From: Octopus vulgaris
Taxonomy: Eukaryota
NCBI GenBank assembly: GCA_951406725.2
Contig: OX597814.1
Coordinates: 55,490,001-55,554,000 of the forward strand
Reading direction: 5' to 3'
Length of the DNA stretch: 64,000 bases
Positions 2,774 to 61,695 of this stretch are shown here, piece after piece. The notes under the pieces were generated by a model, which was given only the letters and a program-made list of their open reading frames with translations, had not been told where the DNA came from and made no database searches. How positions within the stretch are numbered: the first letter of the stretch is position 1; every line of letters starts with the position of its first letter. A program made the translations under genes and the position numbers.

Positions 2774-2929
2774 TCAAACAACAGTTCCTCGTATTCCTTT
2801 ATAGCCTTCTCTGCTACAACTTGTCTCTTCTTCAGCATCAGATTCTGAAATGTCATCTTCTGTATCTTTAGAATCTTCAATATTAGCTGTGTCCTCATCT
2901 TCATCACTGTGAGTATATTCAACTGGTAT
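2774..2929 (-). CDS. KCNT/Slo2: Probable terminal coding exon of Slo2 (IPVEYTHSDEDED...GYKGIRGTVV*)
   Basis: Acceptor tattttag|, phase 0, 51 aa plus TGA; acidic low-complexity tail ending T-V-V, a class I PDZ-binding pattern like ETQL of KCNT1. Linkage to upstream exons is inferred from strand and phase. Confidence 0.7.
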   Translation of the reverse strand: MPVEYTHSDEDEDTANIEDSKDTEDDISESDAEEETSCSREGYKGIRGTVV

Positions 2930-3206
2930 CTAAAATATACAATTGATTTTATATGCTTTGAACAAAGAATCATTTATTATCGTATGATCATAATGCAGTT
3001 CATCTTAATATTTCAATACCAAACTAACTTTTTATAAAAATGTGAACCTGTAAGCAATATAAAACCTTTAGAAAAATTTAAAAGGGAAGCAAATTTACCA
3101 GTGATAAAAAAATCCAAGAAGCTTCAGGTTCATTATAACAATAAAACACCTTTATAAATATGTGTGTGTGGGTGCATAAAGTTGTAAGGTACCACATGAG
3201 TGGAAA

Positions 3207-3840
3207 TATATATGAAAGAAGATTTTAAAATGCAATTTTAAAGATGTTTATTCATTTGACTGGTTTCACTTTTTTAGTGAAAGATTGTCAAAAGTAAAAT
3301 GTAAAGCTTTGTATGAGCTTTGTTGTGTTAAGTACTGGTTGTCACATAAGTATTAAAAAACAGAAATACATTCTTTGATGATAATAAGAAAATGTTAAAA
3401 ACAGTTTACGAGAAAGTATTTGAGAAAGTAATCAAAACGGGTTCAATAAAAATCATGTTCGTTTGGTAGCATATATATATACACAGGAGATATATTTAAG
3501 AATTTACAAAAAATTGTAGAAGATAACTGACTTACAGTTCTATATTTAAGAGATGAGGAATTATGAACATTATTTACATTCAACGGATATTTGTCCTCAT
3601 CTTGTTTGTTGTTAACTCAACATTTTGGCTGATATACCCTCCAGCCTTCTTATCAAAGAATGTATTATCAAAGTATGTATTTCTGTTTTTTAATACTTTT
3701 GTGATAACCAGTACTTAAAACAACAAAGCTCATACAAAGCTTTACATTTTACTGTTGACAATCTTTTTCTAAAAAAGTGAAACCAGTCAAGTGATAAACA
3801 TCTTTACAATTGCATTTTCTAACTTTCTTTCATGTATATA
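3207..3840. repeat. Foldback: ~175-bp inverted arms (3207-3383, ~3666-3840) around a spacer with a truncated hammerhead remnant
   Basis: Arms are reverse complements, e.g. tgtaaagctttgtatgagctttgttg / caacaaagctcatacaaagctttaca; spacer minus strand reads GA-A-GGCUG...CAGCC-AAAAUGUU at ~3617-3650. Confidence 0.9.
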
Positions 3841-3891
3841 TATATATATATATTATCCGAAATGTTTAGTATTAAATATCCATCATGGCTG

Positions 3892-3974
3892 ATCTTATCA
3901 ATTGGTTTCACATAAAGAATACAATGGAGTGTTAGGTAACAATCCAATTATATAACTTTACACTTATCAGAGAT
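3892..3974 (-). ncRNA. Type I hammerhead ribozyme, slightly decayed, long stem II
   Basis: AUCU-CUGAUAA-GUGUAAAG...CUUUAUGU-GAAA-C-CAAUUG-A-UA-AGAU; two G->A changes from the canonical core/stem III. Confidence 0.75.
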
Positions 3975-4280
3975 AACCAATATGGAAAGGAATATGGCGA
4001 CTGCTCTCTATTGTCAGAGGTGGATTAGCACAACAGGTCAGCTGTTGCCATGAAAAAAGTGGTGAAATGAAAAAGGCTAGGGGATTATATATATGTATAT
4101 ATAAAATAAGGGAAACACCTAGCATCAATAGCATCATAATTTTAAGATATCTATAAAACCATCAAAAGCTTGCTTATTTTAATGATTTTTGATTTATTAT
4201 TACTGTTGCTTAATATGTTTTGCTAAAATTGTTGTTTCTTTTCAGATATCATCAGTAAAAAGTAATTAAAATTCATTAAA

Positions 4281-5130
4281 ATGACAGATCCATTGGACTT
4301 TCAGAGAGGTCAAATTGTTGGTGCTCATATGGCAGGCGCTAGTGTAATGAAAACAGCTGAAATATTTGGTGTATCAAGAAGTACTGCCTTGAAAGTTATG
4401 ACAGCCTTTGAGAAAGAAGGGAAAAAAACTCCTCATTGAAACAAAAGTCCGGAAGAAAACCAAAACTTTTGGATAGGGATGGTCGGACTCTTACACAAAT
4501 TGTACAGCTTCCAAAATTACTGCAGAGCTCAAGAAGCCAGTTTCAACAAAAACTGTTTGCTGGGAACTGCACAAAATCAGATTTCATGGGAGGGCTGTAA
4601 TCAGAAAACCACTACTTTCAAAAACATAAGTTGCAAAACGCTTAGAGTTTGGTCCCTAAAGCAGTGGAAGAATTGGTCCCTAAAGCAGTGGAAGAATGTT
4701 ATTTTCTTGGATGAGTCATCCTGTACCTTATTTCCAACTACTGGCCAAGTATATGTGTGAAGACAGCCAAAAGAAGCATCTGACCCAGACTGCCTTCTTC
4801 CAACTGTTAAACATGGAGGAGGATCTGTAATGATCGGTGGGGGGGGGACTATATCTTGGAAAACCACCGTCCAATGGTTTCCCTTCATGGAAGAATTAAT
4901 AATCAAGACTGTTTAAGCATTTTATCTAATCAAATTCATCCTATGGTTGTGGAACTGTTTCCGGAGGGAAACACAATCTTTCAGGATGATAATGCACCAA
5001 TTCACACAGCAAAAGTTGTTACTGAATGGTATGAGGAACATTCTAGTGAAGTTGAACATCTTATCTGGCCACCACAGTCCCCAGATCTCAACATTATCAA
5101 ACATTTATGGTGCATTTTAGAAAACAAGTA
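4281..5130 (+). mobile_element. Decayed Tc1-family transposase with DD36E-type spacing
   Basis: MTDPLDFQRGQIVGAHMAG HTH start, VIFLDES, QDDNAPIH...WPPQSPDLNIIK; frameshifts, a stop and a 24-bp tandem duplication. Confidence 0.92.
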
Positions 5131-5199
5131 TATACAATTTTAGAGAAAGTCAGTCAGTCAGAACAGGAAGAGGGTCAATGATTGGCATAGCAGCTCATC

Positions 5200-5680
5200 A
5201 CTTTCTGTAAGGGAAAAGGAGATAACTCAAAAGGAACTGACTACAGAGGCATTGAAATGGTGGATCAAGTCAAGAAAGTATCAATAAAAGTTATAACATA
5301 ATTAATTAGGAAGAATATTAGCTTCCAAATGTAGCTTGGGTTTGTGCCAGAACAAAATATCACTGAAGGTCTCTTCCTAGTAGACAACGATAGAAATTCT
5401 TAGAAAAATAGTAAACTATTATATAACATAACATAATATAACATTTGTTGATTTGGAAAAGGCTTTTGACAGAGTACCATGTTTTGTAAGCTCATGGTTG
5501 TAAACAAAACTAGCCATAGCTGGATGAGTTGTAGCAGCAAGGTAAGAGTTAGTGATGAGTTCAGTAAGGAAGCTAAAATAGGTAAGTACCTATCAAGGCA
5601 TGGTTTTCAGCCTCCTCCTGTTTATTATATTTTTTCTGGTCATAACAGAGGAGTCTGTCCAACCCATGCAAACATACTAA
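5200..5680 (+). mobile_element. RTE-clade LINE reverse-transcriptase fragment
   Basis: LGFVPEQ, TFVDLEKAFDRVP, SKVRV motifs; ends in a (GAT)n tail. A second small piece (QEKYLVKRKPLYIAFIDLKK) lies at ~6977-7045. Confidence 0.75.
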
Positions 5681-8373
5681 TGATGATGATGATGATATTT
5701 TATTCTTTATATATCATTAGAGATTTACAAATAAAATTTGATCAAATAAATAAAAGTAACTTCAGACAAATTTGGGATATATGTTAAATACTTGAAATGA
5801 ATCATATGAGTAACAGAAACAAATAGAAATGGAGAAAAACAGAATTTTTCTAATTTCTAAAATGTAATAACAGCAATAACAAATTATGTTTTGTTCAGTT
5901 AATTTAAGACAAACAGATGCAGAAAATTGGTATAAGCTTCTCCACAGTGGTTGAGTTAATGAATATAACCAACAATACAAACAATGTATTTGTGTAGGAT
6001 GTATGATACTTTAGTGAACTATCAGAAAGAAAGCTACTGCAGCTTGTTGCTGGTTATAATGATGTGAACAGAAATTAACAACTATTTGACAAAATATCAA
6101 ATTTTCACATCAAACTGTACAGTATATATTCTTCAACAGAAACTGTTAATAACAAGGTTGATATTCAGAAAATGTTTAACTAATGATGCAGAAATGCCTA
6201 GATATTTCAATTAATTTCTTCAAATTCACTTTGATGTAATGATAATTAATTTTAGTAGTTTCATATTGTTTTTATCTTTACCTGACTGTTTTACATGACA
6301 GAAAATTATTTCCTAAATGCTATACACAACTAAAGATATTCATCATACTTTATAAAACAACACAATATCCAACAAACAAGATATACTCCCAACACATAAA
6401 TTAAGACAATGTCTTTTTGAAATACATTTGTCTTTTATTGCTGTGTCCAAAAAAGAAGGTGATTCTGAGTGTGTGAGATGCTAATTAAAATAGTGTATTC
6501 TAAGGCAAATAGCTTTTCTCTCATTGCAATCATAATGAAAGTTGTCAAAGAGGCAGAAACAATTTCAGATGAAAATATTCAGGATCCAATAGCTTGACTT
6601 TACACTAAAAGAAATAATTTAACAGAGTACTTCATTGAATTATTGTAATCTGTAGAACCATAAATCACAGTGAAAACAAAGAGAAATCCAGAATATTCAG
6701 AGTAATGTATATAAAAGAAAAGAAATTGTTACATTGTAAATATATACGTAAATATATATTAGATTATAATTTTTTACAAGGCCATAAGTTTTGAGGTGGA
6801 GCAAGTTGATTAAATTGACTAACCCCAGTTCTATAAAGTGTTTATTTTATCAACTCTGGAAAGATGAAAGGCAAAGTTGGATTTGGTGAAATTTTAACAC
6901 AGAGTTGGTAAAATCACCTCAAGGCATTTTGTTCAATGCACTAATAATGCTGCAAATCCACTATATATATATATAGCAGGAGAAGTATCTAGTTAAAAGA
7001 AAACCACTATACATAGCATTCATTGACCTGAAGAAAGATTTGAACACCCCAGAAATAGATTACCTGTTCTAGACAGGTATAGATCCCATATATACACACG
7101 CAGACACATCTACACACTTACAAACCTAAATACTCACATACATGCATATCATGTCATATCATATCACGAACTAACTGTTACTTTCTCAGATACACCACGG
7201 AATTTTTTCAGTGAACAGGTCGGGGTCTCAAAGTGATGAAAATATTTTGACAAATTAAATTTAAATGTTGAAGTGAATCCAACAGTTTTTGTGTGGTTTT
7301 AAGTGGATTATAAACATCTTCCATGCTGCAATTGTTTTTGATTCAACACACAATCTCAGTTCAGGTCACTTGCTATGCAAGTACATCTCCATATATATAT
7401 ATATATATATATATCAAAATATACAGTATTACAGATCAAGTTCAGCCAATCTTGCCAATCTTACCAATCAGTTTTGCACCAGGTACTAGGTAACATGATG
7501 ACTATCTAATACAGAAGACAGAAAAAGGAGAAAGGTCATAATTAGTCAGGGTTCTTTCTTGTGTGATGAGATCGATATTCATCATGAACATCTTGTAGGT
7601 TAATATTTAGAGGTTAATGTGGGAAAGGAAATTTCAGAAGGTTGCAGTTCTGTGAAGGAAAGACAGAAAAGTGTTCTGAGCAGGGTTTGGCAGGTGAGAT
7701 ACAGTGAGAGTAACAGAAGGAGACTGGTGGGTTGGTGGACCTAGGTAGAAACTATGCATCACCAGGAAATGATCTCATTAAGCAGTAGTCCTGCAAGTAT
7801 TAACTGAAAATACAAGGAAACCATAGCAACTGGTGAAATCTCTGTTTTTTAAATAGTGAAGAAAATTAATTAAAAAATGATTCTTTTGCTTGAAAAAAGT
7901 AGGACAAAATGAACTATGATTTTGAATACAAAGTAAACAATGAAATCTGACTGAAGCAGTGCTGATGACTATTACAGACTCTTTAGACTGATAAGACTGG
8001 TGTGATACCTAGCCTAAACATTGGCAGATCAATGTTGGGAGTAAAAATATAAGAATTGGTGTGTGGGAACTGTCTGAATTCTTGCAACTCCACACATTAA
8101 AGAACCAAGGGTTAATTCAGAAACCAAGTAATATGTTAAAATAAAATCTCCTGATAGAATTGATATCATGGAGAGAATAATTTTCTTTAGGAAGCAGCAT
8201 AGGATAAAAGATATGAAGAAATTGAATTACTTTTATTTTCTTAATTGGTCTCCCATTTTATTTTCCACCAGTTCTGGCAAATATAATGTTTATTTGTTAC
8301 CACTGTTTTGAATTAATCATGCATTATTACAGAATTTAAAGATTTCAATGATGTGACTTTAAATTCTGATGAT

Positions 8374-8404
<31 letters not shown>

Positions 8405-8577
8405 TATACATATATATATATATACGATGAGCATCTTCCACTCACAAGGCTTTGGTTGGCCCGAGGCTATAGTAGAAGACACTTGTCCAAGATGCCATGC
8501 AGTGGGACTGAAGCTGAAAACATGTGGTTGGGAAGAAAGCTTCTTATCATACAGCCATGCCTTTGCCTTATATATTC

Positions 8578-8756
8578 TGTAAATAATAATTATAAGCTCA
8601 AGCTTAAAAGCATTCACCATACATTGGCTATAGAAAATACTCTAATATTGGGGCATATAGGCTCTCAATGGCTTATACACCCCGATATTAGACTATTTTC
8701 TATAGCCAATATTTGGTGAATGCTTTACACGCTTAAGCTTATAATTATTATTTACA
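8578..8756. repeat. ~180-bp near-perfect hairpin (MITE-like)
   Basis: ~85-bp arms tgtaaataataattataagc... / ...gcttataattattatttaca around an 8-nt loop. Confidence 0.88.
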
Positions 8757-9104
8757 TAATTTTTCACTCATCACCATTTCTTAACTTAATGCATATATAT
8801 ATAAAGAAATGAGGTGAAGGAACAGGAAATGAAATCAAAAGAAAGTTGAAAAAAAGGTGATAATGGAAGGGAGGGAAACACTGTAAAATACAATGTCTCC
8901 TGGTTGACAAGAAGCAGATATGCTAATTATGTCAAACTGCTTTTCTTTTACCTTCAGTCTCTCTTTAATCTTTCCCTCTCACTCTTTAAAACTCTACTGT
9001 AATATTTTCCCTGTCTTCTTGTTTATGACTCATTTTCTTTTAATATATTTCTCTCTCTCTCACAATCTTTACACCCATCTCTTCACATCATCTTTTTCTT
9101 TATT

Positions 9105-14542: not shown

Positions 14543-16314
14543 AGAAAAGCCAGATAGATATATGAATGGAAAAACAGAAAGTGCAAGTTTCGCTAAAAAA
14601 CAAAAAAACAACCCAAAATACTATTTATCCTAATTTTATGAAATATCAAATGTGTTTATAAATAATTTTACCAATTAATTCACTGAATTAAGATGTATTT
14701 TTTATCTTGCCAAAATGTTGTTTTAACCATATCTGCTAATGATGATTTCTAACTTAAACAAAAGATCACAGATTTTAGGGAAAGGATGTTGTCAATTAAA
14801 TTGATACTAGTATTGATTGATAGTTATTTTATTGGCCCTGAAAAATATCTACTAATAATGCAACTATTAAATGCCATAACATAACTTTTTCTCTTTTTTA
14901 CAGCAAAACAATTTATTCTACCTTTGAGGTATTTATGCTCCTTCCTGATTTTTGATGCTCATTATCAGTAGTTTCTTTGAATATTATTGTTTATAATATA
15001 TATTAAATGTCATATACAGTTATTATACCAAAAGGTGATATTTAACAATTGTTTTTCACTGATAAAATACCTCAGACTACCAAATGGCAAATTGTAGCTA
15101 AACTTTGTTCAGTTCATTGAATTTTGTAATTCTAATAAATTATATTCGTATTCACACTGATTAAGTTTGCAGAAGCTAAAAGAAATAAAAAAATAAAACA
15201 AAATAATCATCATTATCCATTCATTTCCATTCTAATAATACTAGTTACTTTTAATGACTTATAGTCATCTTGTTACTGTCTGTATAGTAAACATGTTGTC
15301 CCAGGTCAGCACTCATGGAGGTAACTTTTGATCAAAGGCAGTCCAGCCTTGTCCCCACTACCTTTATATATCCTTGAGTCAATTTTGTCTAATAAAGGGT
15401 GATGGAAATCAGAATCAGTAGAGCACTGAACAAAATACCATGAAGTACTTATTTAATGCCTTTTATAATCTGTATTCAAATCCTATCAAGGCTGGCAGAA
15501 TAAGTACTAATCAATATTATACTCAAAATCTTTGCTCATGTTAAAAAAATATATATAGGCAGACATTTCTATCGTTGATGTTAGGCTTAAACCTCTACAC
15601 GCCAATGTGTATTGGAAATATTGGCACAAGCTTGTATCACTTCTCTTTTTCTTTAAGATGAATTCTTTTTTAGAACATTTTTTTCAGTAAAAGAGTTTTA
15701 AATTTGAATGGAGAATATACTGTAAGTTAACAACTTAACAATAAAAGCTATTAACAGTGGAAATAAACTGAAGAATTTTTAGGAGGCAGATGAAAAGTGT
15801 TCAATCTGATTTAAGACACAGCATCAATACATATGGAGATTTTGCATATTTCAGGCCTGGACAATTCATGCCAGTATTACATATTACTGGCCAAGGAGAT
15901 GTGATATTGGACTCCTGTGTGATAAATATCATATCCAAGTAGATATGATATTTATCATACAGGAATTCAATCCATTGCAGATATATTACAAATATTTCTT
16001 AATTTTACATATTTCAGTTCACAGTAGTTAAAAATAGGCACCAGATCCATTGGAAATGTTTTCTGAAATATGCAAGGGTTCTAACAAAGGTAGATTTATT
16101 TCTGATCTGTTTTATGCCCTGTAACTCTAAGTTCTGACCCTTGAAAACCTCCCAGGGATTAGGAGACGAGTACATTTAATCTGGTGTTCTGTCATTTTGC
16201 CATTCCAGCATCTTTTCCATTCTTACTGTTAATTTTGGATTTGATTATGCATATGCTTGTACATAGGATGAGTACAAAACATTTTTGAAGCAGTATTAGG
16301 TTAGTAGTGCTAAC

Positions 16315-31161: not shown

Positions 31162-33602
31162 GAACACACAGGTGAGCAAGGTTTCTGTAAGAAGCCTATG
31201 AAACTTTAAGTTGCATGGGCTGAATCAAACTGTTTTAAATAATAATAATGATATACATATGTTTGCTTGTCTTTGTGTTTATGAAAATTCAGCAAAAGAG
31301 ACTGGTAGAATAAGTACCAGACTTAAACAAATGAATAACTGGGGATAATATGTTCAACTAAACCCAATATATCTTCAGTCCAATGACGGAAACAAGTGAA
31401 AGACAAATGAAAGAGAATGTCAGAAAAATATATATCAAAGATGAAATTGATAATCTAAAAACCTACAGTTGTAGTTAAAATCTTATTTTAGATGTATTGA
31501 TGAGTTACAGGTGTTGATGTTCCTTCAATTAAAATTATTTTTGTAAATGTATAATACTAAAACTTCTTTAATGTATATGAAAACTTTTAATTGATCTTCT
31601 AAATTATATTTTTTAGAGTTTTCAACATATTTTTTTAATATTCTATAGTGAGTAGTTTTGCAATACAACTTTGCATGCATGTGTGTGTGTGTGTGTGTGT
31701 GAGTGTAGCTTGGTTGTTTTATTTCTTTCTTTTGTTTTACATCTATTTTTTATGGTAATGATACTTGCTGATGTGTGTGTAGCCTTGTCTACTATTATTG
31801 ATTTGAACCTGTGTTTTATCAGTCAGGGCAACTGGAGCAAGCAGAATCATATCTCTTGCCCAATGTCACACTACAATAGCTGTAGTAAGAGTTTAACTTA
31901 TAAAGATATTATCAATAATCCATATTTTAAACTCAGTTTCATTTTACCATCCAACAGTTAAAAAGTTCTTATCTGTTTAACTATTAAATCACTATATGTA
32001 TAAAGATATTTATATTAAAATCAATATTATATCCAAATTCAATCAATTTATACAGAAATATGTTTTGATAGAGAATGTGATCTACAGTCTCAGGCTGAGT
32101 GATGAAATTGAAACTCATGAGGTTGTTGTTTAGCCCAAGGTCAGTACTGAACATGTGGACTTATGATCAACTATATTCTAATCTTGACAATTTTCTCTTT
32201 TCCAGGCATAAAATTCAATGTTATTTCTTTATTCAAGGTAGCAGAGTTTGATTTGAAAAAGATTTTGCTCTCCCACCCTCCATATTTTTTGATTTACCAG
32301 CAGGTTTCTTATATAGCTGCTTTCATTCCTCCCTGTATTGTCACTTATTACCTCCTTCTTCCTGAGCCATTTTTATTCTTTCACCTTCTCCATAACACTA
32401 ATATTCACCACTGATCACACCTTCACCTGTGTCCCATTCCCTACATCCCTCTCTACATTCATCTCTAACCATTTGTCACACTCTCCTCACACTCTAATGA
32501 ACCTGTCTACTCACCCTTCTCGATGCTTTGTCTGTATTCTCCCTTATACACATCTGATACAATCACCACGATTATTGTCTTCTCTAGAGCCCATTCACCC
32601 ATTTATGATGCAAGGTAGTCACATATCTCCACTAAAGCAAGATATACACACACTCACATACATACATATACATGTGTGTGGGTGTGAGTATGTTTTTGTG
32701 TTTCCTGGTTTTGACATAGCATGATAGTTATAAATGAGAGCCACAAGTGTTTTTCATTTCCAATATTCTGTGAAAACATGTCTGGCCATGGGGAAATTTT
32801 ACCTTGCTTGGAAACAGGTGAGGGTAGGTGGTAGAAAGGTTATCCAACTGTAAAAAGTCTGTCTCAATAAACTATGTCCAGTACATGCAAGTATGGAAAA
32901 GTAGATGTCAAAAAGATAACGATGATGATATATGTATACATGTGTGCGTACACACATACATACATATGTATATATGTATGTATACACACACACACGCATA
33001 TATCTATATATACACACATGCAAAAATATAGATACATAAATTTCAAACATACATACACATATACATCTTGTTGTTTTGAAAGTTAGAGGTGATTTATCAA
33101 CTTCTGTGTAGGCTAAGATGTGCAAGTTCTATAGAAATCACATATTATTTACATATTGTACAGCATGTGCATAGTCTAATATCATACTATCAGTTGCACT
33201 CTGTTTTGATTGGGGTTACCGTTCTATTACAGTAAAGGTCAATAGCTTTCATCTATCCTTGCTGCTATACCAGTATAACAGTGCTAAGACTACTTGGTAT
33301 TTCAGCTTTAATGTTATTTCATTGATTTAACTTGAAATCTTTCAGAAGCATATGCAACTTATATATATTTAAGTATACTCATGCAAGTCCCTCAATATAT
33401 TATTTAAAAAATATTTCTTAATCACCACTAGCTAGAAAGAACTTCAGTAATATTTACTTCTGGTAATCTTTATAAGAAAATGTAACAGACTTTATAATAT
33501 TACTAATTGTGTAGCTAGAAAAACTGCCATCACTGTATTATACTTGGATTCAGTCAACATACAATACAGGAAAGTTTTAAATAGTTTTTCTAGAGAATTT
33601 AC

Positions 33603-33837
33603 CCTACTGTTGTCTTCCAGTATGGTTGAAATCCTTGTTCTCCTGAAATGAGGGAAAGGCCCTAGTTTGTTGTCTGAATTCTCATCGGTATCTGAGTTGT
33701 CTGCCCCTGTTGGCTCACCTCTTTCACTGAGGCTGTGTAGCTTAGAATCTTTTACTATTTGATTTTTCTTCAACAGTTTGCGTTCATCTACCAGTGGCGA
33801 GGGGTGAGGGGACAATGAACTCGGTCGAATAAGATAT
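33603..33837 (-). CDS. KCNT/Slo2: Slo2/KCNT exon (YLIRPSSLSPHPSP...RISTILEDNSR)
   Basis: Long poly-T acceptor, AGG|gtaaat donor, 235 nt, phase 2->0; YLIR continues the conserved D-I-V-Y-L-I-R motif, followed by a divergent Ser/acidic tail. Confidence 0.9.
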
Positions 33838-37139: not shown

Positions 37140-37272
37140 TATAATCTTTTAATGGAAGATTAAGATGAGCCATCCGGCATCTAACCATCTGTGCAATCTC
37201 TTGACGTTCAGGAGTTGTATTTGTATGGTAGGTAGATTGCTCTTCAGTTTCATGATTCATACTTAAAGAAAC
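37140..37272 (-). CDS. KCNT/Slo2: Slo2/KCNT Na+-activated K+ channel, C-terminal exon (VSLSMNHETEEQSTYHTNTTPERQEIAQMVRCRMAHLNLPLKDY)
   Basis: Acceptor ttttattttcag, donor A|gtaagt, 133 nt, phase 0->1, only one open frame. ERQEIAQMVRCRMAHLNLP matches the ERQELSELVKNRMKHLGLP motif of KCNT1 (recalled, not searched). Confidence 0.93.
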
Positions 37273-41742: not shown

Positions 41743-42179
41743 ACAGATAGTATGTGGTGTGGTTGGGTAGGTTGCAAGAGTGTGGGGTGTGAAGAGAGAG
41801 AAGCAGACATAGTGAATGAGGAGAGTGAGAGATGTATGGTGGTATTATTTTGAGCTGTATTTTAATTTTGATATATATATATGCACAGTAAGTGATGCAT
41901 TTAACTAAAATATGCTTGTCATTTCCATCTGAAGATCATTTTTAGTATGCTACTTGGATATCATTGATGAACAATGATATACATTCATATCATAACTGAA
42001 GATTTTGACATACATCTGATATTAGATTACACTCACTCTCTTCACTATTACACATGCCTTCAGTTTACTCATATAAATACTTATTGAAAACTTAATTATT
42101 GTAAACCAAACACCTGGGCAATGAAGATTTGTAATTCTAATTATCTGCTACTAACACTAAGATGGTTTGCAATAATCAC

Positions 42180-45100
42180 TTATATATTGATAATGCGGAA
42201 GAAGCAGATGCATGGCTAAAACAGTTTAACCCAAACCTGTTTACAGATGACACTGAGCTTAAACTGGTTAAGTCAATATTTCTCACATTGTGTGGCATCA
42301 CAGCAATCATCAAACTGAAAAATGTCCTGTATGTACAATAGTTTAAGATTGTTCAATTGAAGATTTAAAGTATGCTGTTGAAAATGCAGCTATACTTAAT
42401 GAAATACATGATATCAAGTTGAAATTATTGGATCTAAATCAAAAACAAGAACCAGCTAAATATTCATTGTTAAGAAGGCTCAATGTACAGGCTTTTTATC
42501 TATGTAAATTCTCTACAACCAAAGATGACAAAAAGCAAAGATGACAAAAAGCAAAGATTATAAAAATAAAGATTCTACAAACTTTTCCAAAAGCATCCAT
42601 CTTGTAAGCCTTGTTATAATTATGCAAGCAAAGTAAGTATTTGCTCTTGGATCAGTAATACAACCAAGCTTTAATACATAAATTACTTTATGTTATTGGC
42701 AAAGGCTCTTATCAAAGAAAGCTGAATAAACAAGTAACTGACTAAAGCTGGGTTAAAAATTGTGGCAATTGTGAATCAATACATCCTCCCAGATTCTGTC
42801 CTGCATATGTGAACAAATGATTTGAATGTGAGAGATTGAACTATTCCAGCAAATTAAGACCAAAACCACTGTATTCTACCAAACCTGTCTATAACATTAA
42901 ACTTATGAATCTTAAAGAGTTTGAAGAGGAAGTAACTTTGAATGTAAATTGTGCAACAAATAATAAATTGAATAGACATCCAGTATCAAGAGTGGATGCT
43001 TCAAAGGATGGATTCTAATAAACAAGATTCAATGGATTAGTGCTCCTAAATTGAAAGAAATTGAGAAATATCTGGTGTTGATAAACTAGTACTGGTGCAG
43101 TATGTTGCATTGTTCTAGCCTAACTGTACAAACTAGTACTGGTTACTGGTGCAGTATGTTGCATTGTTCTAGCCTTACTGTGAATGAAATTGTCATTAAT
43201 CCTCAAATCTATTGAGACACATTTAACTTCTGATGATGGTTCAATAACTAGATGTAGTTGGTACTAAAACAGTCTTCACTTTAGAGATAAATAAAAAAAA
43301 TAAAAAGCATCACATCTGTTTTGTTAAAAGTTAATAATCTTTATAACTTTGGCTTTATCAAGGCTGATACTCTGAAAAATATATCATGCAGCTGTGTTTC
43401 TAACTATTTGACATCAGTAAAACATTTTAATGCTATCAGGTAAAGTTAAATATAAAATTTGTTCAGGGTGACATGTTACAATACACCTATAAAAAGAAGG
43501 TCGAAAATGAACTTCCCAGTCTTGCAGTAATGTCCATATGAAGGTATCAACAATGCATCACGATTTGTTTGAGTGTGAAAGAAAGTAAATTAAGAATGAG
43601 TATTGATTACAAAATGCATTTAAATAATAAGATTAAGACTATCATATTTTCTTATTTAAATCCTTATCTAGAAACCAACATTGACTGATGAGCAAGAAAC
43701 AAATTTTCCCTTCATATTGCACTCTTTGAATCAATTGAATAATTCTTTAAGAACCTGCATGCAATATGTGTAAGCAATGATCTTTATTGATCCATAAATT
43801 TCTGCTGAGCCTAACATAACAGCAGTTCCATTTTCCAACATTCTATGGAGTCTATACTGAAGGGAAGTAATGACATAATCATTTGTGAGAAACGCACTCA
43901 TCTTTACAACAACCTATAATATATTAAAGAATTAAGAAAATGTGATTATTGCTAGACTGAAAGGAGCCAGTTTATTAATTAATCCACATAAATGTATTCA
44001 TCATGCATCTTCCTTTAATTTCTTAAGAGTGGATACTTCAAAGGATGGATTCTAATAAACAAGATTCAATGGATTAGTGCTCCTAAATTGAAAGAAATTG
44101 AGAAATATCTGGTGTTGATAAACTAGTATTAGAAGTTTATACCAACATTTACAAATGTAGTTGAACCAAAGTTTACAAAAATAGTTGCAACAAAAAGGAA
44201 TGTTGTTTTTTACTCATGGAATGCATCAAGACCAGGCCTTTCAGGTAATAAAAGAACTTTTTAGATTATATTCTGTTTGGCAACATTCACTACTAAGAGG
44301 GGAACAACTTTCAGTGTATTTGTTTCTAAATTGAGAGTAGCAGGCATAATGTCTCTAAATGGAAAGCACAAACCACATGTTAGTCATACATTTGAGAATA
44401 CCTAAGTGATTTTGGGTCAATATTGAATATGAAACCTATATGGTGATATGATGGGTGAAAAATTGAGATCTTTTCTATTAGGGAAAGTTTCCACTTTGAA
44501 AATACATTTATAATTAACTTTTTTAAAAGCTTGATATATGAATTTCTCAGTAAATTGCCAGAAGAGCTATCATATGACTTCAAACTTGTTTACATGCCTA
44601 GTAAAACTATCAGTCATATTGATGCTCTGAGCAGATTGAAATGGGATTCAGATCAGTCTGATACAATCACTGTCCTAGGTAACAAGAGCATCACTGGCAT
44701 TGTCTGTATTTGTTTATCATAATTTTATGTCTGTTTTATGTATTACAATCTGACATTGGTAATGATGAAAGAATTTTTGCTGAGGGCAAGGAAGTTGAAG
44801 ATATAAAAGATAATTTTAAAGAATTCACACTTGATTCTTGTTTACAAAATCACAACGCTGGAAAATATTGATTTTAGACTAATTCTTTTAGAATGACAAT
44901 TTACCAGATTGTGGAGAATAGTCCTATCTTTAATAATCGCTGCAAATTTTGGCACAAGGCCAACAATTTTAGGAGAGGGGTAAGTCAATTACATTGACCC
45001 CAGTGCTTGATTGGTACTTATTTTATCAACCCCAAAAGGATGAAAGGCAAAACTGACCTTGGCAGAATTTTAATTCAGAATGTAAGAATGGATGAAATGC

Positions 45101-45860
45101 TACTAAGAATTTGTCTAGCATGCTAATGATTCTGCCAGCTTATTTCACTCTTATCTTTAATAAAACAGGCTAAGTCATAATACACACATAAATGTTCAAT
45201 CAAAATTAAAAAATAAAATAAAAACCCAGGGATTAATCTTGGTAGAAACTTTAAAGAATTTGTTAGATCTTGTGATGTGTGCTTAAATTAAATTTAAAGA
45301 CACCCTTTGTGCTGATAAATGGCCCAAATCACAGATCAGGGAAAGGTTACATATGGAATGGGAATAAATAGAGCATATTGGGAAAATTTTGTTCGTAGTC
45401 GACTTTATGTATTCCAACAGAAGTTTCGAAAATGTAAGGTATAGCTAATTTGCTATTTTTCCTAGATCTTGTGTTTCAATGACAGTGGTATTAGATAATG
45501 CACTAGAATTGATTTAGTTAAAGGAACAGTTAAACTTATTTGCAAGAAAATTGATTCTACTTACAGTCAAATATTTAGTGATGCAGCAGAAAGAGCTGTG
45601 CAAAGAATAAAGTTTGCATTAAAACCTTCCAGTGCATCAGCTGATAAAGTTAATGAGTATTTGTTAAAGTTTCTTTTTAATTCATTGTGCATCTCCAGTT
45701 GAGAAACTACATAGTAGACAATTAAGAGTAGTAGTAAGCTATTTTAAAAAGGTTGAACAACTGGTTAATTACAAGAACAGTATAATGAAATTTCCTGCAG
45801 ATGCGTGTCATTTGACTACAGACCAGATTAAATGTGAAGATGAGAATTTTCTGTGAGTGT
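42180..45860 (+). mobile_element. Highly decayed Ty3/Gypsy LTR-retrotransposon internal region
   Basis: Ordered remnants: gag-like EEADAWLKQF, knuckle CGNCESIHPPRFCPA, RT LRMSIDYK, RNase H YDFKLVYMPSKTISHIDALSRL, integrase RLHMEW / VVLDNA / AERAVQRIK; LTRs not recognised. Confidence 0.8.
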
Positions 45861-46439
45861 CAGTTGAATAAATTGCTTCTAAATACATTCCCTAACTACA
45901 TCAGTTAATCATGATTTTAGTTTTGATCATTGGAGATAAATAGCAAACGTCATGAAGTTTAATGTCAGCTAATAATTTATGATTATTAAAAAAAATATCA
46001 AATTGAAGTAAATGATATTATTGACAGGTTAATATCACCCATTTTTCCATCTCTTATATAACTGCCTGTTTATTAAGTAATTCCCTGAATCCATTTCCAA
46101 CAATTCAACATTAGCAATTCCCATAACTATCACTGCAGCTCATATTCAATCTCTAATTTCTTTCATGTGTCTAACACTTTACCTCATGCTGAACTACAAT
46201 GAGGCTTTAACTAAGCTTCATAGTAGTTTAATGGGTAATACAAAACCTCCAACATAAGAACTGCAGAATCCTAAAAGGATATTTAGAAATTACAAAGATA
46301 TAATGAGAAATATGATTCATTTTTTGTGGTTACATTTGTAGTATTCCATATAATTGCTTATGTAGATCTCTGCTCAGTAATTAGTATATATGTGTGTGCA
46401 GAAAATGAATGACAAGAATGACACATGCTTGGTGAGAAT

Positions 46440-52244: not shown

Positions 52245-53129
52245 TGAGGTGTAGTCAAAAAGCATCCAACCTTTGGCAAAAAAACAAACAAGTAATATTA
52301 AAAATCTCACCATTTTGATCTAGTCTTCTTCAAAGTGTTAACCTTGGAATTTTACACACTTCTGCCACTGTTCCTACCACAACTGAAATCATTTCTGGAA
52401 ATCACATTTTGGGATGCTGTGGAGCTGTGCTGTTGAATTTTGCTTAATTTCCTCTGTTGACTCAAATCTTTTCCCTTTGGGTGTTTTTTGAGCTTTGGGA
52501 ATAGCCAAAAGTCACATGGAGCCAAGTTTGGGGAGTAGGAACCTTGACAAACAAGTGGTGTGTTTTGCTTGACAAGGAATGCTTTGATGACATGGGTGGA
52601 GATGCCTGTTGTCATGGTGGAGTTGCTAGTTCTTTGCAGCCCACAGGTCAGGTTGTTTTTGCCACACAACTTCATGAAGGTGATGAAGAACCTTTGCAAT
52701 CATTTCATCATTTCTGTTAGTTGATGGTCTGCTACAATGTAGCTCACTGTCCACTGAGGTGTGGCCATCCTTGAACTGGTTATACCACTCCTTTATTTGT
52801 GCTTTTCCTGTAGCATCATCCCCAAAAGCCTTCTGAATCTTCTCGATAGTCTGGGCTTGTGTAACACCAAGTTTTAGGCAGAATTTGATACAGTATCTTT
52901 GCTCAATGCAATTGGTCTTCTTGACTCAAACAGAAAAATCACATAGCACACTCTTCACATCTGTACTCAATGTGTCACTGTTGGCGACTGGTGCAACCTA
53001 CAGACATAAACATTTTTCCACATGCTCAGGAAGGATGCAACCATCTAATACCCATGCAGATTTTGTTCACGCATTAATATTTTGTGCAAAAAAAAAAATC
53101 AAGTTTGGATACTTTTTGACTACACCTCA
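52245..53129 (-). mobile_element. Internally deleted mariner element with TIRs
   Basis: TIRs tgaggtgtagtcaaaaag(c/t)atccaa at both ends, left TA; YSPNLAPCDFWLFPKLK motif. Confidence 0.92.
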
Positions 53130-55867: not shown

Positions 55868-56248
55868 GTATTGCAATAAAAGCCACATAGAGTATATATG
55901 TATATTTTCAATGTATTTATAAAATTACAAAACCATAAATAATGTTGTATTCATACACATTGTGAACAGGTTCTTATAAGTGTCATAAAATTTGAATAAG
56001 TTTAGTGATTATATTAAAAAGAAATTTTTCTAATGTATATTATTTAGTAGACATTAGTTTTATATTCATTTGATAAAACATACATGTAGATAGTTATTGG
56101 GCCTGAATCTCATTAAAATAGAAAGCTATGATTATTAATATTTCATTGAATATAAATATAAACTATTTTATGTCTAAGCCAAGCTAAATGACAAAGCATT
56201 AGTTCATAGATATCACTGCACTTGCCTTTCAATAAAAACAATACTTAC

Positions 56249-56307
56249 AACAGACTGTTTGAATGCTAAATTCATTGCTGATTGATCTTTGATGATTGTA
56301 AATGTCC
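56249..56307 (-). CDS. Candidate upstream small exon of the minus-strand gene; acceptor (56307 or 56311) and frame unresolved
   Basis: Long pyrimidine tract, tandem acceptors aag|TCAG|, perfect donor gtaagt; two frames are open (TFTIIKDQSAMNLAFKQSV or DIYNHQRSISNEFSIQTVC). Confidence 0.5.
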
Positions 56308-56628
56308 CTGACTTGCAATATAATAATAAAAAGGAAAATAAAAAAACCAACTGATCATTGGTAGTTGACAGTAGAAAAGGTTATGAAACAACTGAGGCTT
56401 ATAAAAGAAAATATTTCTCCAAGTGTGAATTTCCAGAAAGGATGTTCTACTAGGATTTGTTTCAATATATATATACATAAACAGGCATTTAATAATAAAT
56501 ATGTTGTTCAGTATTTGCATATTATGTACAAATACATGTACATATGTGTATATGTATGTGTACATATGTATACACAGTAAGTACTAGAATCAATTGTGAA
56601 AGCATTTGTCTTACAAAAATGCAATATG

Positions 56629-57474
56629 TTGTGTGGAGTCAAGAGTTTTGCAATACTTTGATGACATATTTGCTCTATTCCTCAAATTACAACAAAGCAG
56701 CCTAGCATTCAAAGTAGAGGCCATTGTGTTGCACTGTCTGCAGCCACCTTTCTGCCAGCTCCTTCATCCTATGCTGATACCAGTTCTTGTCCTATGAGGC
56801 AAAGAACCCCTTCACTGAACCTTCTACTTCCTCTTGGTTGATGAATCTTCACAAGTGCTGGAAATAATCCATGTAATAATCTGAGAGTTATTTTCCCCCA
56901 ATCCTAATGTGCATGAGCAGTGGTTAAGCAAGGCCCAAATTCAGGTATCTGTCACCAAACATACAGTGATACTGTGCATCTAGTGGGATTATGAGGGGAT
57001 AATTGACTTTGAGTTCATTCTCATTGGTCAAATTATCAATGCCAACATATACTCCAAATAGCTGGAGTAGATGTATGCGACTGTGTGGCAAAAATACCCA
57101 GCATCAGTTAATAGAAAGCACACTCTTCTGCAGCAAGACAATGCAAGATATACTGCTAGAATAACGTGGCATAAACTCCAGGAACTTGAGGGAATTGAAT
57201 TAGTGCCACATCTAGCGTATAGTCTGGACCTAGTTCCCTCAGATTATTACTTTTTCCAATCCATGATTCACTTCCTGCACTGTACCAGGAAGAGGTGGAA
57301 GCTTCAGTAAAGGACAAGAATGGCATCAGCATGGGATCAAAGAACTGGAAGAAAGGTGGCTTCAGATGGTGCAACACAATGGCTTATACTTTGAATGCTA
57401 GGCTGCTTTTGTTGTAACTGATGAATAAAGCAACTAAGGTATCAAAATATTGCAAAACATTTGACTTAACACAG
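56629..57474 (+). mobile_element. Mariner derivative with two inverted 3' ends
   Basis: LQQDNAR...AYSLDLVPSDYYFF on the + strand; ~56629-56840 is the reverse complement of the 3' end at ~57285-57474. Confidence 0.85.
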
Positions 57475-57505
57475 TATTTTGATACAATATATACACACAT
57501 ATATA

Positions 57506-57537
<32 letters not shown>

Positions 57538-57780
57538 AGGAAAAATACGTTCAAAAAAGAATAATTCAAACTTTTTGAGAAGTCCAAAAAGAGAAAAAGA
57601 ATAATTTCTAATAAAGATTCATCATATTCATAAAAAACAGCCAGAGTGAGTAATAAGAATAGGAAAATAGTAGGTGAAAAATATCATTATAGGTATAAAT
57701 ATAGCATAAGCAATTATAGAAAAATAGAGTAGTAAAAGATGTTGAATCAAAATTAGATTTAATACAAAATAGGATTCAAT

Positions 57781-57878
57781 AGATACGTGTGTTTCAAAGG
57801 ACAATACAAATATGTGAGAAAAAAATTTTAACCATAGTAATTCTAATTAAATTTATGCATTGTCATTTTCATCAGTGT
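57781..57878 (-). ncRNA. Hammerhead-like motif in left arm of foldback
   Basis: ACA-CUGAUGA-AAAUGACAAUGCA...UGUAUUGUCCUUU-GAAA-C-ACAC-G-UA-UCU; core intact, stem I weak. Confidence 0.65.
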
Positions 57879-58397
57879 GAGGAATTTTTGTAAGGACATC
57901 GAAAAAGGTTTAATAAAATAAAGTAAATTAAAATAAAATAAAGTAAGGGAGAATAAAAATTGGGCAATAGGGAAAGAATTTGATATTTACAAGCAAGTTT
58001 TAAAAGGGGAAAAAATAACAGTAATAATAATAGTAAGAGGGACAAAATGGGTGGGGAGAGACAGACATATCAGTGTGTATGCATGTCTATATGTGCGGTA
58101 AACTATAACATAAAAATAAGAAAGAAAAAACCATACATATACATATTAATATTGAAAAACGAAAAAATATATGTATATTTTACACGAAGCTAAAAGGCGA
58201 TAGGCAAGAATATGTTTGAACAAAGTTACAATATTAAAGTAAAAATGTACATGCATGCAGAAAAAAATCAAAGAGAACTTAACAAGGAAAAAACATCGAT
58301 CGATGTTTTTTTCCTTGTTGAGTTCTCTTTGTTTTTTTCTACTAGTCCACCTGTTACTATATACACGTAGCCATGTCTCGACCTGTTACCATTTTTT

Positions 58398-58602
58398 TTA
58401 ACCCTTTAGCATTTAAACCAGCCATATCCGGCCAAAAGTATTCTACCTGTTTTATGTTCAAACTAGCTAGATCTGGTCTCTCACACCAACCCCACAATAT
58501 CGTTTTAAAAATTAACGGCTACCTCATCAAAATCTCATAGCTACAAGATAATGCATGATTAGTTTAATACAATGAGGATGTAAAAGCATTAATTTTGGCA
58601 GA
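58398..58602 (+). mobile_element. Truncated piggyBac-like MITE inside the foldback centre
   Basis: Begins TTAA-CCCTTTAGCATT; it interrupts the symmetry of the foldback; the other TIR is not seen. Confidence 0.5.
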
Positions 58603-58844
58603 TTACATTCTTATTTTTATGTTATAGTTTACCGCCCATATAAATGTGCATACACAATGATATGTTTGTTTTTTCCCCTTCGTCCCTCTATTATTATAAT
58701 TGTTATTTTTTCCCCTTTTAAAACTTACTTGTAAATATCCGTTTTTTCTCCCTATTGCCCCATTTGTATTCTCCTTTATTGTATCTTATTTTAATTTACA
58801 TTATTTTATTAAAACGTTTTTTGATGTCCTTACAAAAATTCCTC

Positions 58845-58942
58845 ACACTGATGAAAATGAAAATGCATAAATTTAATTATAATTACTATGGTTATAATTT
58901 TTTTCTCACATATTTGTATTGTCCTTAGAAACATGCATGTGT
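58845..58942 (+). ncRNA. Mirror hammerhead-like motif in right arm of foldback (decayed cleavage site)
   Basis: ACA-CUGAUGA...UGUAUUGUCCUUA-GAAA-C-AUGC-A-UG-UGU; inverted copy of 57781-57878. Confidence 0.55.
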
Positions 58943-59049
58943 ATTGAATCCTGTTTGTATTAAATCTAATTTTGATTCAACATCTTTTTCTCCTCCATTT
59001 TTTCTATAATTGTTTATGGTATATTTATACCTATAACGATATTTTTTCA

Positions 59050-59150
<101 letters not shown>

Positions 59151-59562
59151 GTGAGTTAGAGGTTGAGAAACCAACTAAAGGATAGTACCTATCCAGTATA
59201 CTGCTGGTAGTGTACCCAATTATTCATACCCAAGTGCTAGTTATTGCATGGCAATCTCGCAATTAAGTATTATATATGAGTAGGGATAAAAAGTGGTTTA
59301 TCTTTGATTTATATAGCAAATAAGAAAGTGGAGATGATATGAAATCGACAGACACCAGCTGGTAAACATTCCAGTATGTCTATTTATTCAAATGTATTGG
59401 ATGTATCCACACACTTGTATTAGTGGTACAGATTATCAAGTGGAAAAAGTTAGTAATTGCATAAACAAGGGTGTGGAAGCATATAAGCATATAAAAACAA
59501 GTGAGTAATTGAGTAAATGAATAGATTGCCACTAAAACCGAATGTGTATGCAGGTGCTAGTT

Positions 59563-59686
59563 CCTTATGGCCGTTTTTGCCAAGAGGCAATGAAATTTTC
59601 CAGGTTATCTCCATCTCTTCAGTGTTATGCAGGGATGAGCAGAAAAGGCTTGGATAATGAATGTGCCCCCTAGGCTTCTTCAGAGG
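59563..59686 (-). ncRNA. Decayed hammerhead motif, left arm of second foldback
   Basis: CCU-CUGAAGA-A-GCC...GGC-A-AAAA-C-GGCC-A-UA-AGG; GAAA has become AAAA. Confidence 0.6.
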
Positions 59687-59875
59687 GAAATCAATTAATA
59701 ATAGCTACAGTGTGTTAGTCTTTTTGAAATAAAGTAGAAAAAGAGTAAGAATAAGAACAAGCACTTGTATTCTCGTGTTTGTTCTTATTCTTTTTCTACT
59801 CTGTTTCAAAAAGACAAACACACTGTAGCTATTATTAACTGACTTTTATGTGTTAGCCCCACCAACCACTTAGAA

Positions 59876-59998
59876 CCTCTGAAGAAGCCTAGGAGCGTAT
59901 TCATTATCCAAGCCTTATCTGCTCATCCCTGCATAAAACTGAAGAGATGGAGATTACCTGGAAGATTTTGTTGCCTCTTGGCAAAAACGGCTGTAAGG
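59876..59998 (+). ncRNA. Decayed hammerhead motif, right arm of second foldback
   Basis: CCU-CUGAAGA-A-GCC...GGC-A-AAAA-C-GGCU-G-UA-AGG; the two arms together reconstruct the stem III palindrome CGGCCG. Confidence 0.6.
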
Positions 59999-60252
59999 AA
60001 GTAGTACCCGCATACCCATTCTGTTTCAGTGACAATCTGCTCATTTTCACATTTGCTCAATTACTTACTTGTTTTTATATGCTTATATGCTTCCACACCC
60101 TTGTTTATGCAATTACTAACTTTTTCCACTTGATAATCTGTACCATTAATACAAGTGTGTGGATTCATCCAATACATTTGAATAAATAGACATACTGGAA
60201 TGTTTACTAGCTGGTGTCTATCAATTTTATATCCTCTCCACTTTCATATTTA

Positions 60253-60318
<66 letters not shown>

Positions 60319-60674: not shown

Positions 60675-61695
60675 CTAATATTTAGTAGACATGCTCTTTA
60701 CATTTTTCAATGCAAGGACCCTATCAGGTATTCTATTGATCAGATGACAGATATTCTTTTGAGGAATTTCTTTCCAAATTTCATGCAGTAATCTCAAAAG
60801 ATTTGGCTTTGAGTATACTTTGTTGTTCTTTATATGAAGTGTTCTGTTCATTATGACTGAGAGGTATCCAATAGGGTTCATATCTGGTGACTGGCTTGGC
60901 CATGGAAGATTTTTAATGCCATTCTCTTCCAACCAGCCTTGGGTCTTTTTAGCCATGTGACAAGGAGCCCCATCTTCCATAGATAAAGTGTCTTCTTTAA
61001 TCATTTCCCCACTGGAGAAGATTGGAAGGAGTCCTTTCTACAATATGAACACATATTTATCTGAGTCTATGTTTCCCTCACACTCTACCAGCTCTGATCG
61101 ACCATTTCTCCAAATTGCTTCCCAGACCATCACAGAATAGCTGCTGTATTTTATTGTTGGCTGCAATCTTTTCATGTCAAGCTCTTGATTACAGAGTTTC
61201 CAGACCCACACTCGACCACTGTCAGAAAATACAGCAAATTTGGACTCATCAGAGAATATGACAGTGTCCCAATGCTAGTGCCCTCTCCACCATCTTACTG
61301 GCCCAATCTTTTCTCTGCTTGATATTGGCTGGTCGAAGAAGTGGCATCCTTCTTGTTGTTCTGCTATAGTAGCCAAGTTAGTGGAGATACCAAACAGCTG
61401 TTCTGAGATTGACATCAACTTGTTCTGCTATGTCAGAGGCCTTGCAATGAAGATTGTCCTTCACACTTCACTTAACAAAGCGAAGGGTCCTGTCAGGGGA
61501 TCTTGGTTAACCTGAGCAAGGTAATGTGGACTCCTTGCCAACCCTAGTGAATTGCACAATCACACTATTAACTTTAGAAAGTGGGATCCCAGGGTGTTTT
61601 GGGATTTTACTCTAACTAGGTCCACCTTCAGATTGACTCACAATATGGCCTTTTTAGAATTTGAACAGTTCCAAGCCTTCTTTTTTGTGTGGCAT
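60675..61695 (-). mobile_element. Decayed near-full-length Tc1 (DD34E-type) transposase
   Basis: IFSDESKF, VMVWEAI, EDGAPCH...WPSQSPDMNPIG (34-residue spacing, E->G); multiple stops and frameshifts. Confidence 0.92.

Follow-up and report, generated by a model that had tools for sequence, protein, structure and literature searches.

The window analyzed here, a stretch of 64,000 nucleotides from Octopus vulgaris, contains 3′ exons of the potassium-channel gene KCNT2 (Slo2). For the exon at 33600–33836, Octopus proteins of this gene match at up to 99% (four matches among 456 candidates), and mapping of four proteins placed minus-strand exons at 37272–37138, about 35.2 kb, 33836–33600, and 2929–2777. 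Two more minus-strand exons, at 56311–56240 and 18356–18243, are each matched in one of the four proteins and are alternative exons; residues 1 to about 1040 of KCNT2 lie outside the window. The first of these alternative exons is the host exon nearest to the element described below and lies about 2.8 kb downstream of it in the direction of the transcript. Based on this exon mapping, the element likely lies within a KCNT2 (Slo2) intron and is read on the minus strand, in agreement with a sequence-only reading of the window, which had placed it in a cephalopod channel transcript.

The element is a long foldback flanked by (TA)n microsatellites (Table 1). Comparison of the window with itself by blastn returned an inverted match at 59307–60262 (E = 0), and an inverted-repeat search of the window also recovered three collinear arm pairs. 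In a pairwise alignment, the arms are 91.5% identical, with 38 mismatches (27 transitions and 11 transversions) in 448 aligned columns and a K2P distance of 0.09. Gaps of 29 nt and 8 nt occur in the left arm and gaps of 6 nt and 1 nt in the right arm; the 29 nt correspond to about 59847–59875 of the right arm. The 10-nt loop is placed according to the best register of the alignment and would shift to 59762–59771 in an ungapped register. When the foldback is folded as RNA, 91% of its bases are predicted to be paired. The arms of about 450 bp and the loop of about 10 nt are as the sequence-only reading had described them, and the foldback is indeed present at the extent it gave (59311..60260), but the element reaches further left, to about 59147.

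Table 1. Features of the foldback element and its surroundings (positions in the window).
Feature	Position	Strand	Basis
Nearest host exon, alternative KCNT2/Slo2 exon	56240–56311	−	tblastn, 95.8% identity to P0003
(TA)n microsatellite, left flank, likely insertion target	59055–59146	.	sequence
One-sided 3′ extension (“tail”) of left copy, no mirror in right arm	59147–59313	−	contigs of all four runs
Left arm, element sense = KCNT2 pre-mRNA sense	59307–59764	−	self-comparison and alignment
Near-identical arm tract, likely gene conversion	59362–59502, mirror ~60067–60207	.	arm alignment
Decayed type I hammerhead motif, left	59563–59686	−	sequence, descriptor, family letters
Left motif, stem I	59686–59684 / 59565–59563	−	
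Left motif, CUGAAGA (C3 at 59683)	59683–59677	−	
Left motif, stem II region	59676–59578	−	
Left motif, G12A	59577	−	
Left motif, stem III (nominal cut after 59566)	59574–59567	−	
10-nt loop, head-to-head (5′-to-5′) junction of two copies	59765–59774	.	alignment and fold
Right arm, element sense	59775–60255	+	arm alignment; ends at (TA)n, recurrent family end point
Decayed type I hammerhead motif, right	59876–59998	+	sequence, descriptor
Right motif, stem I	59876–59878 / 59996–59998	+	
Right motif, CUGAAGA (C3 at 59879)	59879–59885	+	
Right motif, stem II region	59886–59983	+	
Right motif, G12A	59984	+	
Right motif, stem III (nominal cut after 59995)	59987–59994	+	
(TA)n microsatellite, right flank	60256–60317	.	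sequence

Each arm carries a type I hammerhead motif that reads outward, which confirms the mirror-image hammerheads proposed earlier. From the centre outward, each arm reads CCU and CUGAAGA, then an unpaired A, GCC, a long insertion, GGC, and another unpaired A. Next comes AAAA, which replaces GAAA, and then stem III, a palindrome now decayed, which is followed by the nominal cut site and AGG. In both motifs, stem I has 3 bp and the stem II region spans 98–99 nt. Stem III reads ACGGCCAT in the left arm and ACGGCTGT in the right arm, each one CpG transition from ACGGCCGT. The observations that the change of GAAA to AAAA is common to both arms and that the CpG-type changes in stem III are arm specific had also been made in the sequence-only reading, and both hold. 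Penelope-like element (PLE) hammerheads are defined by an extra base after A9 (position 9) and a palindromic stem III (PMC4209133). This extra base is present here as the A after CUGAAGA, and is followed by the GCC/GGC G–C opening of stem II; the second unpaired A, before G12, creates a 1×1 mismatch at the base of stem II.

The type I descriptor used to score these motifs was drawn up after the motif had been seen, and its relaxed form also matches a transposase frame at 61252; the weight therefore rests on the palindrome and on the family data presented below. The descriptor accepts the left motif once two family-majority letters are substituted in silico. Among 20,000 dinucleotide shuffles, seven gave a relaxed match, one gave a 3-bp stem III, and none gave the full 8-nt palindrome. 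The Rfam hammerhead models gave no match at the gathering score and none among the 61 matches at E ≤ 10. The predicted folding of the stem II regions is no more stable than that of shuffled sequences (z = −0.66 and −1.67, or −1.26 and −1.41 with family letters), and the same comparison for the whole motifs gave z = +0.94 and +0.44. The predicted folds have a basal stem II helix of 8 and 11 paired positions after one bulge.

Several other matches were set aside. Those to plant microRNA models of Rfam at the foldback centre are below the gathering scores and are expected from any long hairpin. The hammerhead-like match at 61252 (minus strand) was treated as chance and sits on the FSDESKF codons of the transposase frame, which is presumably of Tc1 type, and the match at 34973 was judged in the same way. 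The second CTGAAGA within stem II has no stem I or stem II partner. Motif matches in metagenomes were likewise ascribed to chance, since all 11 are on contigs of 44–59% GC and come without an upstream core or wider similarity.

Features of an active ribozyme are absent at the locus, in that position 12 is an A in both arms and stem III is broken by CpG changes. G12 is the general base of the hammerhead (PMC6155905), and the energy predicted for the duplex of the two arms (−672 kcal/mol) far outweighs that of the hammerhead fold (−22 to −27 kcal/mol). Self-cleavage is therefore not expected, and both hammerheads are predicted to be dead.

Public sequencing data were used to place the element in the context of its family. 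Part of the stretch was found in 20 of the 24 listed public runs (five organism labels), and four of the 24 (X1, X4, X14, and X19) were aligned to 59150–59885 at 80% likeness, with 862, 1072, 986, and 42 matching contigs, respectively. The family data consist of the 40 of 221 difference rows, 15 of 40 joints, and 24 of 593 loose ends that were listed; summed contig depth is not a copy number, and its trend alone was used. At 59577, the family majority is C, that is, G12, with a summed depth of 2781/2781 in X1, 5858/6045 in X4, and 4854/5217 in X14 (35, 51, and 42 covering contigs); in X19, two contigs only have the G12 letter (5.2 of a depth of 12.7). The family-majority C at 59568 restores the stem III palindrome. 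The CUGAAGA half shows no difference among the rows listed, and because depth is low there, this half of the family core rests on its presence in both arms. The element belongs to a dispersed repeat family in which G12 and an intact palindromic stem III are the majority state. The sequence-only reading had named a family consensus lacking the hammerhead core as grounds for giving up its proposal, and this is not what the contigs contain.

Family sequence continues past the left arm for about 165 nt, as far as a (TA)n run; contigs of all four runs cover this tail, with the greatest depth at 59175–59224. Divided by the median of eight listed pieces, summed depth is about 1600–6600 there and 60–110 at the hammerhead, and in the three DNA-type runs it declines from the 3′ end toward the centre (a rough estimate, from contigs only). 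This trend displays the frequent 5′ truncation that is a PLE trait. Normalized depth beside the foldback centre is 0–6 per bin, and the mirror bins hold more. The segment 59175–59224, which is about 20–70 times deeper than the hammerhead region and has letters that are polymorphic between organism labels (59208, 59211, and 59212), may also occur in a short repeat that is much more abundant. The tail also contains a 7-bp hairpin (59284–59303) that adjoins the recurrent short end and is present in the family majority; in the window copy, both 59286 and 59301 are changed and the pair is kept. Speculatively, this hairpin is a candidate RT-start or recognition stem-loop.

Other copies do not always form foldbacks, which answers a question raised by the sequence-only reading. 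Among the loose ends listed, eight X1 contigs join (TA)n just before 59314, the mirror of the right-arm end at 60255. Upstream of 59804, five X4 and seven X14 contigs continue (median 111 and 124 letters) with sequence absent from the stretch, which means that those copies do not fold back here. Still other copies invert elsewhere: among the joints listed, whose orientation is not given by the data, five are opposite-strand joints, at 59351/59446, 59402/59590, and 59414/59685 (one contig each in X1 and X4) and, in X14, at 59184/59384 and 59435/59503.

No listed contig spans 59150–59885, so the junction is without independent confirmation. Depth at 59700–59724 is near zero in X1 and X4, a hole that proves nothing, and this bin has a mirror at about 59809–59833. 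That neither a contig nor a read of independent origin confirms the junction would suit an assembly artefact in the form of a palindromic chimera. We consider this explanation hardly credible, since the arms differ at 38 sites and by four indels, in a pattern marked by transitions and CpG changes. Moreover, 24 of the listed difference rows fall in the left arm, and in 16 of them the family letter reaches at least 75% when the runs are pooled. Of these 16 sites, the right arm agrees with the family at eight and with the left arm at eight. Letters common to both arms include those at 59355, 59415, 59494, 59548, and 59577. Family letters at eight sites are impossible for a chimeric copy of the left arm and identify the right arm as a separately aged copy rather than an assembly echo.

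Mismatches between the arms are unevenly spread, with 2 in the 141 columns at 59362–59502 and 36 in the 307 columns elsewhere. The permutation p value for any 140-column window is 0.0016 (the window size was picked after viewing), and the longest identical run, 79 columns, has a permutation p value of 0.017. Within 59362–59502, four of the five listed departures from the family are common to both arms, which indicates that this tract mutated normally and was likely homogenized, by gene conversion between the arms. Outside the tract, both arms share three of ten listed departures, G12A included (binomial p = 0.003–0.04 at assumed parallel rates of 3–8%); this count drops the gap-adjacent site 59522 and the CpG site 59315, which is just below the 75% cut. 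G12A itself sits in just 21 identical bases bounded by arm-specific changes.

The sequence-only reading had suggested that the change at G12 predates the inversion or was homogenized. Homogenization as such is now directly supported by the 141-nt tract with two mismatches, while the data on G12A fit several origins: a template already unlike the family, an older conversion, and duplication at the DNA level would all fit the shared letters. In our judgement, the template has about an even chance of being the source of the shared G12A, conversion a somewhat smaller one, and two independent changes a small one. The shared changes do not point to a template edited by ADAR, and this source was rejected, since just one of eight is A>G on the element strand.

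Duplication at the DNA level would mean that a single older copy was duplicated and inverted after insertion, by fold-back repair or template switch. The eight of 16 listed left-arm departures that recur in the right arm (family majority ≥75%) agree with this idea, as do the three of ten shared outside the tract, which exceed the expectation for parallel mutation. However, the right arm and other copies of the family have the same end point at (TA)n, to the base, which a random fold-back would not choose, and the right arm retains the 29 nt and 8 nt that are missing on the left; an already divergent template combined with conversion accounts for the shared sites equally well. We therefore regard a DNA-level origin as unlikely.

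In our view, the hairpin is probably one insertion of a PLE family, in which two 5′-truncated copies were placed head to head between (TA)n runs by fold-back reverse transcription and have since decayed, with hammerheads that are predicted to be inactive. Membership of the PLEs is likely and rests on six architectural features, among them a type I hammerhead with a short palindromic stem III (in the family majority, among the differences listed), an inverted 5′-truncated copy placed head to head so that the motifs read outward from the 10-nt loop, a tail at one end only (59147–59313) with a recurrent short end at 59314, and (TA)n on both sides of the element as well as at the short end in the eight X1 contigs. 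The suggestion in the sequence-only reading of an inverted arrangement as in Penelope-like elements is borne out, as head-to-head copies, a one-sided tail, and (TA)n flanks match the published PLE build.

In the proposed sequence of events, a PLE RT/GIY-YIG protein acting in trans would insert the element at a nick in (TA)n. Both arms would be copied from one template molecule, fold-back (self-primed) reverse transcription would join the two short copies head to head, and later mutation with at least one arm-to-arm conversion would yield the present arm differences. The published parts of this picture come from EN+ PLEs. Inverted pLTRs with a one-sided tail and mostly head-to-head junctions were read as self-priming by Arkhipova 2013 (PMC3846280), and an inverted 5′-truncated copy, a 30–40-bp tail, and (TA)n targets were described by Craig 2021 (PMC8557442). 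As far as the sections of these papers considered here go, the likeness extends to the head-to-head 5′-truncated copy, the hairpin-like junction, the extension at one end, the (TA)n target, and a hammerhead near the 3′ end; unlike those elements, the present one has no gene between the repeats, and its tail is about 165 nt long, compared with 30–40 bp. According to the consulted part of Frangieh et al. (PMC11167929), the PLE tail is set by internal RT starts, and hammerhead catalytic mutants still insert in vitro.

Dual hammerheads on opposite strands, 100–700 bp apart, are known from Schistosoma (Cervera and De la Pena 2014; PMC4209133). The sections of that paper drawn on here indicate that the S. 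mansoni PLE hammerheads resemble the present motifs in the opposite strands (the C3–C3 distance here is 196 nt), in the extra base after A9, and in palindromic positions 15.2–16.2. Their helix II is 7–8 bp, in contrast to a stem II region of 98–99 nt, and the present motif further differs from these minimal hammerheads in its 3-bp stem I and the loss of G12. Hydra-clade and PLE-X hammerheads (rows of File S2 of PMC8557442) share the 1×1 mismatch between core and stem II and the short palindromic stem III, and Hydra elements share the (TA)n preference; Penelope-13_HM, in the same file, has an inverted copy and a hammerhead on each strand. Unlike the present motifs, the hammerheads in these rows have a loop 2 of 3–11 nt in canonical cases and at most 35 nt in deviating ones. 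The foldback build has thus been published before (PMC4209133, PMC3846280, PMC8557442, in the parts covered), and what remains of interest here is the unusual length of stem II and the homogenization tract.

The element contains no RT or GIY-YIG remnant (sense-strand translation; five overlapping frames without a Pfam match), as is expected for a short 5′-truncated copy. The contigs include upstream continuations of other copies, and the family could not be linked to a PLE gene. A direct tandem pLTR is absent from the window copy (repeat search and self-comparison). The Octopus Naiad consensus (Naiad_Ovul / Naiad_Omin) gave no match by eye and no exact short motif in its line-broken text, and the Hydra-1_Obim hammerhead, as given in its row of File S2 of PMC8557442, differs from the present motif in all three stems. 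In O. vulgaris, 190 PLE families together account for 6.83% of the genome (PMC13282606); the accessible text of that paper contains neither “hammerhead” nor “ribozyme,” and the one supplement searched contains none of five motifs.

The lack of a coding remnant in 1.1 kb would also be expected if the family were a short hammerhead retro-element, retrozyme- or SINE-like, that is non-autonomous, without a gene of its own at any time, and moved by borrowed PLE machinery; the much greater depth of the 3′-terminal 50 nt is compatible with such an element. Animal retrozymes have been proposed to derive from PLE pLTRs, and non-LTR retrozymes resemble the present element in being noncoding, carrying a type I hammerhead, and being related to PLE pLTRs (10.64898/2026.07.22.740005, from the part of that text considered). 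Retrozymes, however, are tandem arrays, whereas the present element is an inverted pair with no head-to-tail repeat of the unit within the window; the motif is of the PLE type and not of the canonical form with a 6-bp stem I, and copies extend upstream of the fold point. We judge an element of this kind about as improbable as a DNA-level duplication.

Another reading, now largely refuted and very unlikely, is that of a miniature foldback DNA transposon of the Tc1/mariner type, with long TIRs and inserted at TA, that captured a hammerhead. TA does adjoin both arm ends, the window contains mariner and Tc1 remnants, and low central depth is weak evidence against such a transposon, since short-read assemblies lose hairpin centres. 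Yet the family runs about 165 nt past the left arm, which makes the termini asymmetric, and the inversion points vary among copies, some of which pass the centre.

A PLE insertion in this intron would have consequences for the transcript. As judged from its orientation, KCNT2 pre-mRNA would carry the left motif in sense, with a near-perfect antisense 200–430 nt upstream, and pairing of the arms would give a duplex of about 450 bp in which the ribozyme is hidden, so that passive ADAR editing, rather than self-cleavage, is what the element likely causes at present. The predicted duplex is a likely candidate ADAR substrate, and the sequence-only reading had considered it a plausible substrate for ADAR or siRNA. 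Penelope insertions would in this way supply neural pre-mRNAs with ready-made long duplexes in an animal whose A-to-I editing is very high. The parts of PMC5625713 used here report about 1.05 million unique hyper-editing sites in octopus CNS, heavy editing of lizard Penelope, and palindromic repeats as strong editing substrates. The Xenopus palindromic Harbinger and lizard Penelope of that study resemble the present element as self-folding repeats with a long duplex and a short loop, and differ in that editing was shown there, whereas here there is a candidate substrate only. None of the runs that contain the stretch was listed as RNA. X19, guessed to be RNA and from another organism label, has no A>G or T>C excess over the DNA-type runs; its contigs are other family copies and are therefore uninformative on editing at this locus.

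The same duplex, with its high degree of pairing, lies near an alternative exon in an animal with extensive hyper-editing, and one might suppose that the host keeps the hairpin as a regulatory dsRNA (an editing inducer or splicing element) for that KCNT2 exon. We find this highly improbable. The differences between the arms look neutral (transition bias, CpG decay, and deletions), several foldbacks occupy the same introns, and selection is without support from conservation.

One of these foldbacks adjoins the PLE-like insertion. Its arms, at 57670–58122 and 58608–59054, are 88.6% identical, the whole region spans 57540–59054, and the spacer of about 490 nt contains a small palindrome (58259–58340). 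By eye, the left copy runs about 130 nt further to (TA)n and the right copy ends at (TA)n. Among the matches listed, it has no similarity to the family described above. It contains outward hammerhead-like motifs (C3 at 57875, minus strand, and 58848, plus strand) with both core halves intact and 73 nt between them, and its stem III sequences are what a 10-nt palindrome would give after CpG decay. The motifs have a weak stem I, and the z-scores for stem II are not significant. In a core-plus-stem test, the left arm passed, as did 1 of 10,000 shuffles. Judged by its layout, this foldback appears to be of the same build as its neighbor and, as its core is intact, it is the better candidate for a cleavage assay.

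Two foldbacks with a long stem II region lie side by side at the locus and may represent two unrelated families. We found no description of a PLE hammerhead with a 70–100-nt stem II in literature searches or in the considered parts of the papers cited here, of PMC6765202, and of PMC8969392. The hammerhead core search in the part of PMC8557442 considered allowed spacers of 7–17 nt, and published descriptors also include a “half core” at 35–50 nt. It is possible, but to our minds doubtful, that several octopus PLE families have hammerheads with a stem II of 70–100 nt that escape Rfam and published descriptors, and that the template mobilized here carried a dead ribozyme. The locus points to hammerhead variants with a long stem II that current libraries miss, and if these cleave, the hammerhead content of PLEs is undercounted. 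If the template was indeed mobilized after ribozyme death, the locus would be a natural case to set beside the catalytic mutants reported to insert in PMC11167929, in the portion considered. In itself, the locus is a minor one, a decayed retroelement remnant of a published build; the arm pair provides an internal clock and a visible homogenization tract for studies of conversion in inverted repeats.

The same introns contain further inverted-repeat pairs, at 3206–3839, 8574–8760, 56622–57481, and 15906–15971, and window-wide scans found no long-stem hammerhead in these four. The pair at 56622–57481 flanks what we take to be a mariner-like remnant. A mariner HTH_48 remnant (E = 2.6e-10) is present at 52629–52925 on the minus strand, and 60678–61427, also on the minus strand, contains a broken transposase with a DDE_3 match below the cut-off, the frame that we assume to be of Tc1 type; its FSDESKF codons mimic the hammerhead core and are a trap for motif scans. 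At 42100–45900, short broken frames resemble, in our estimation, a decayed LTR-retrotransposon pol, and the seven frames tested gave no Pfam match. This region also includes a 104-nt direct repeat at 99% (42988–43091 and 44025–44128).
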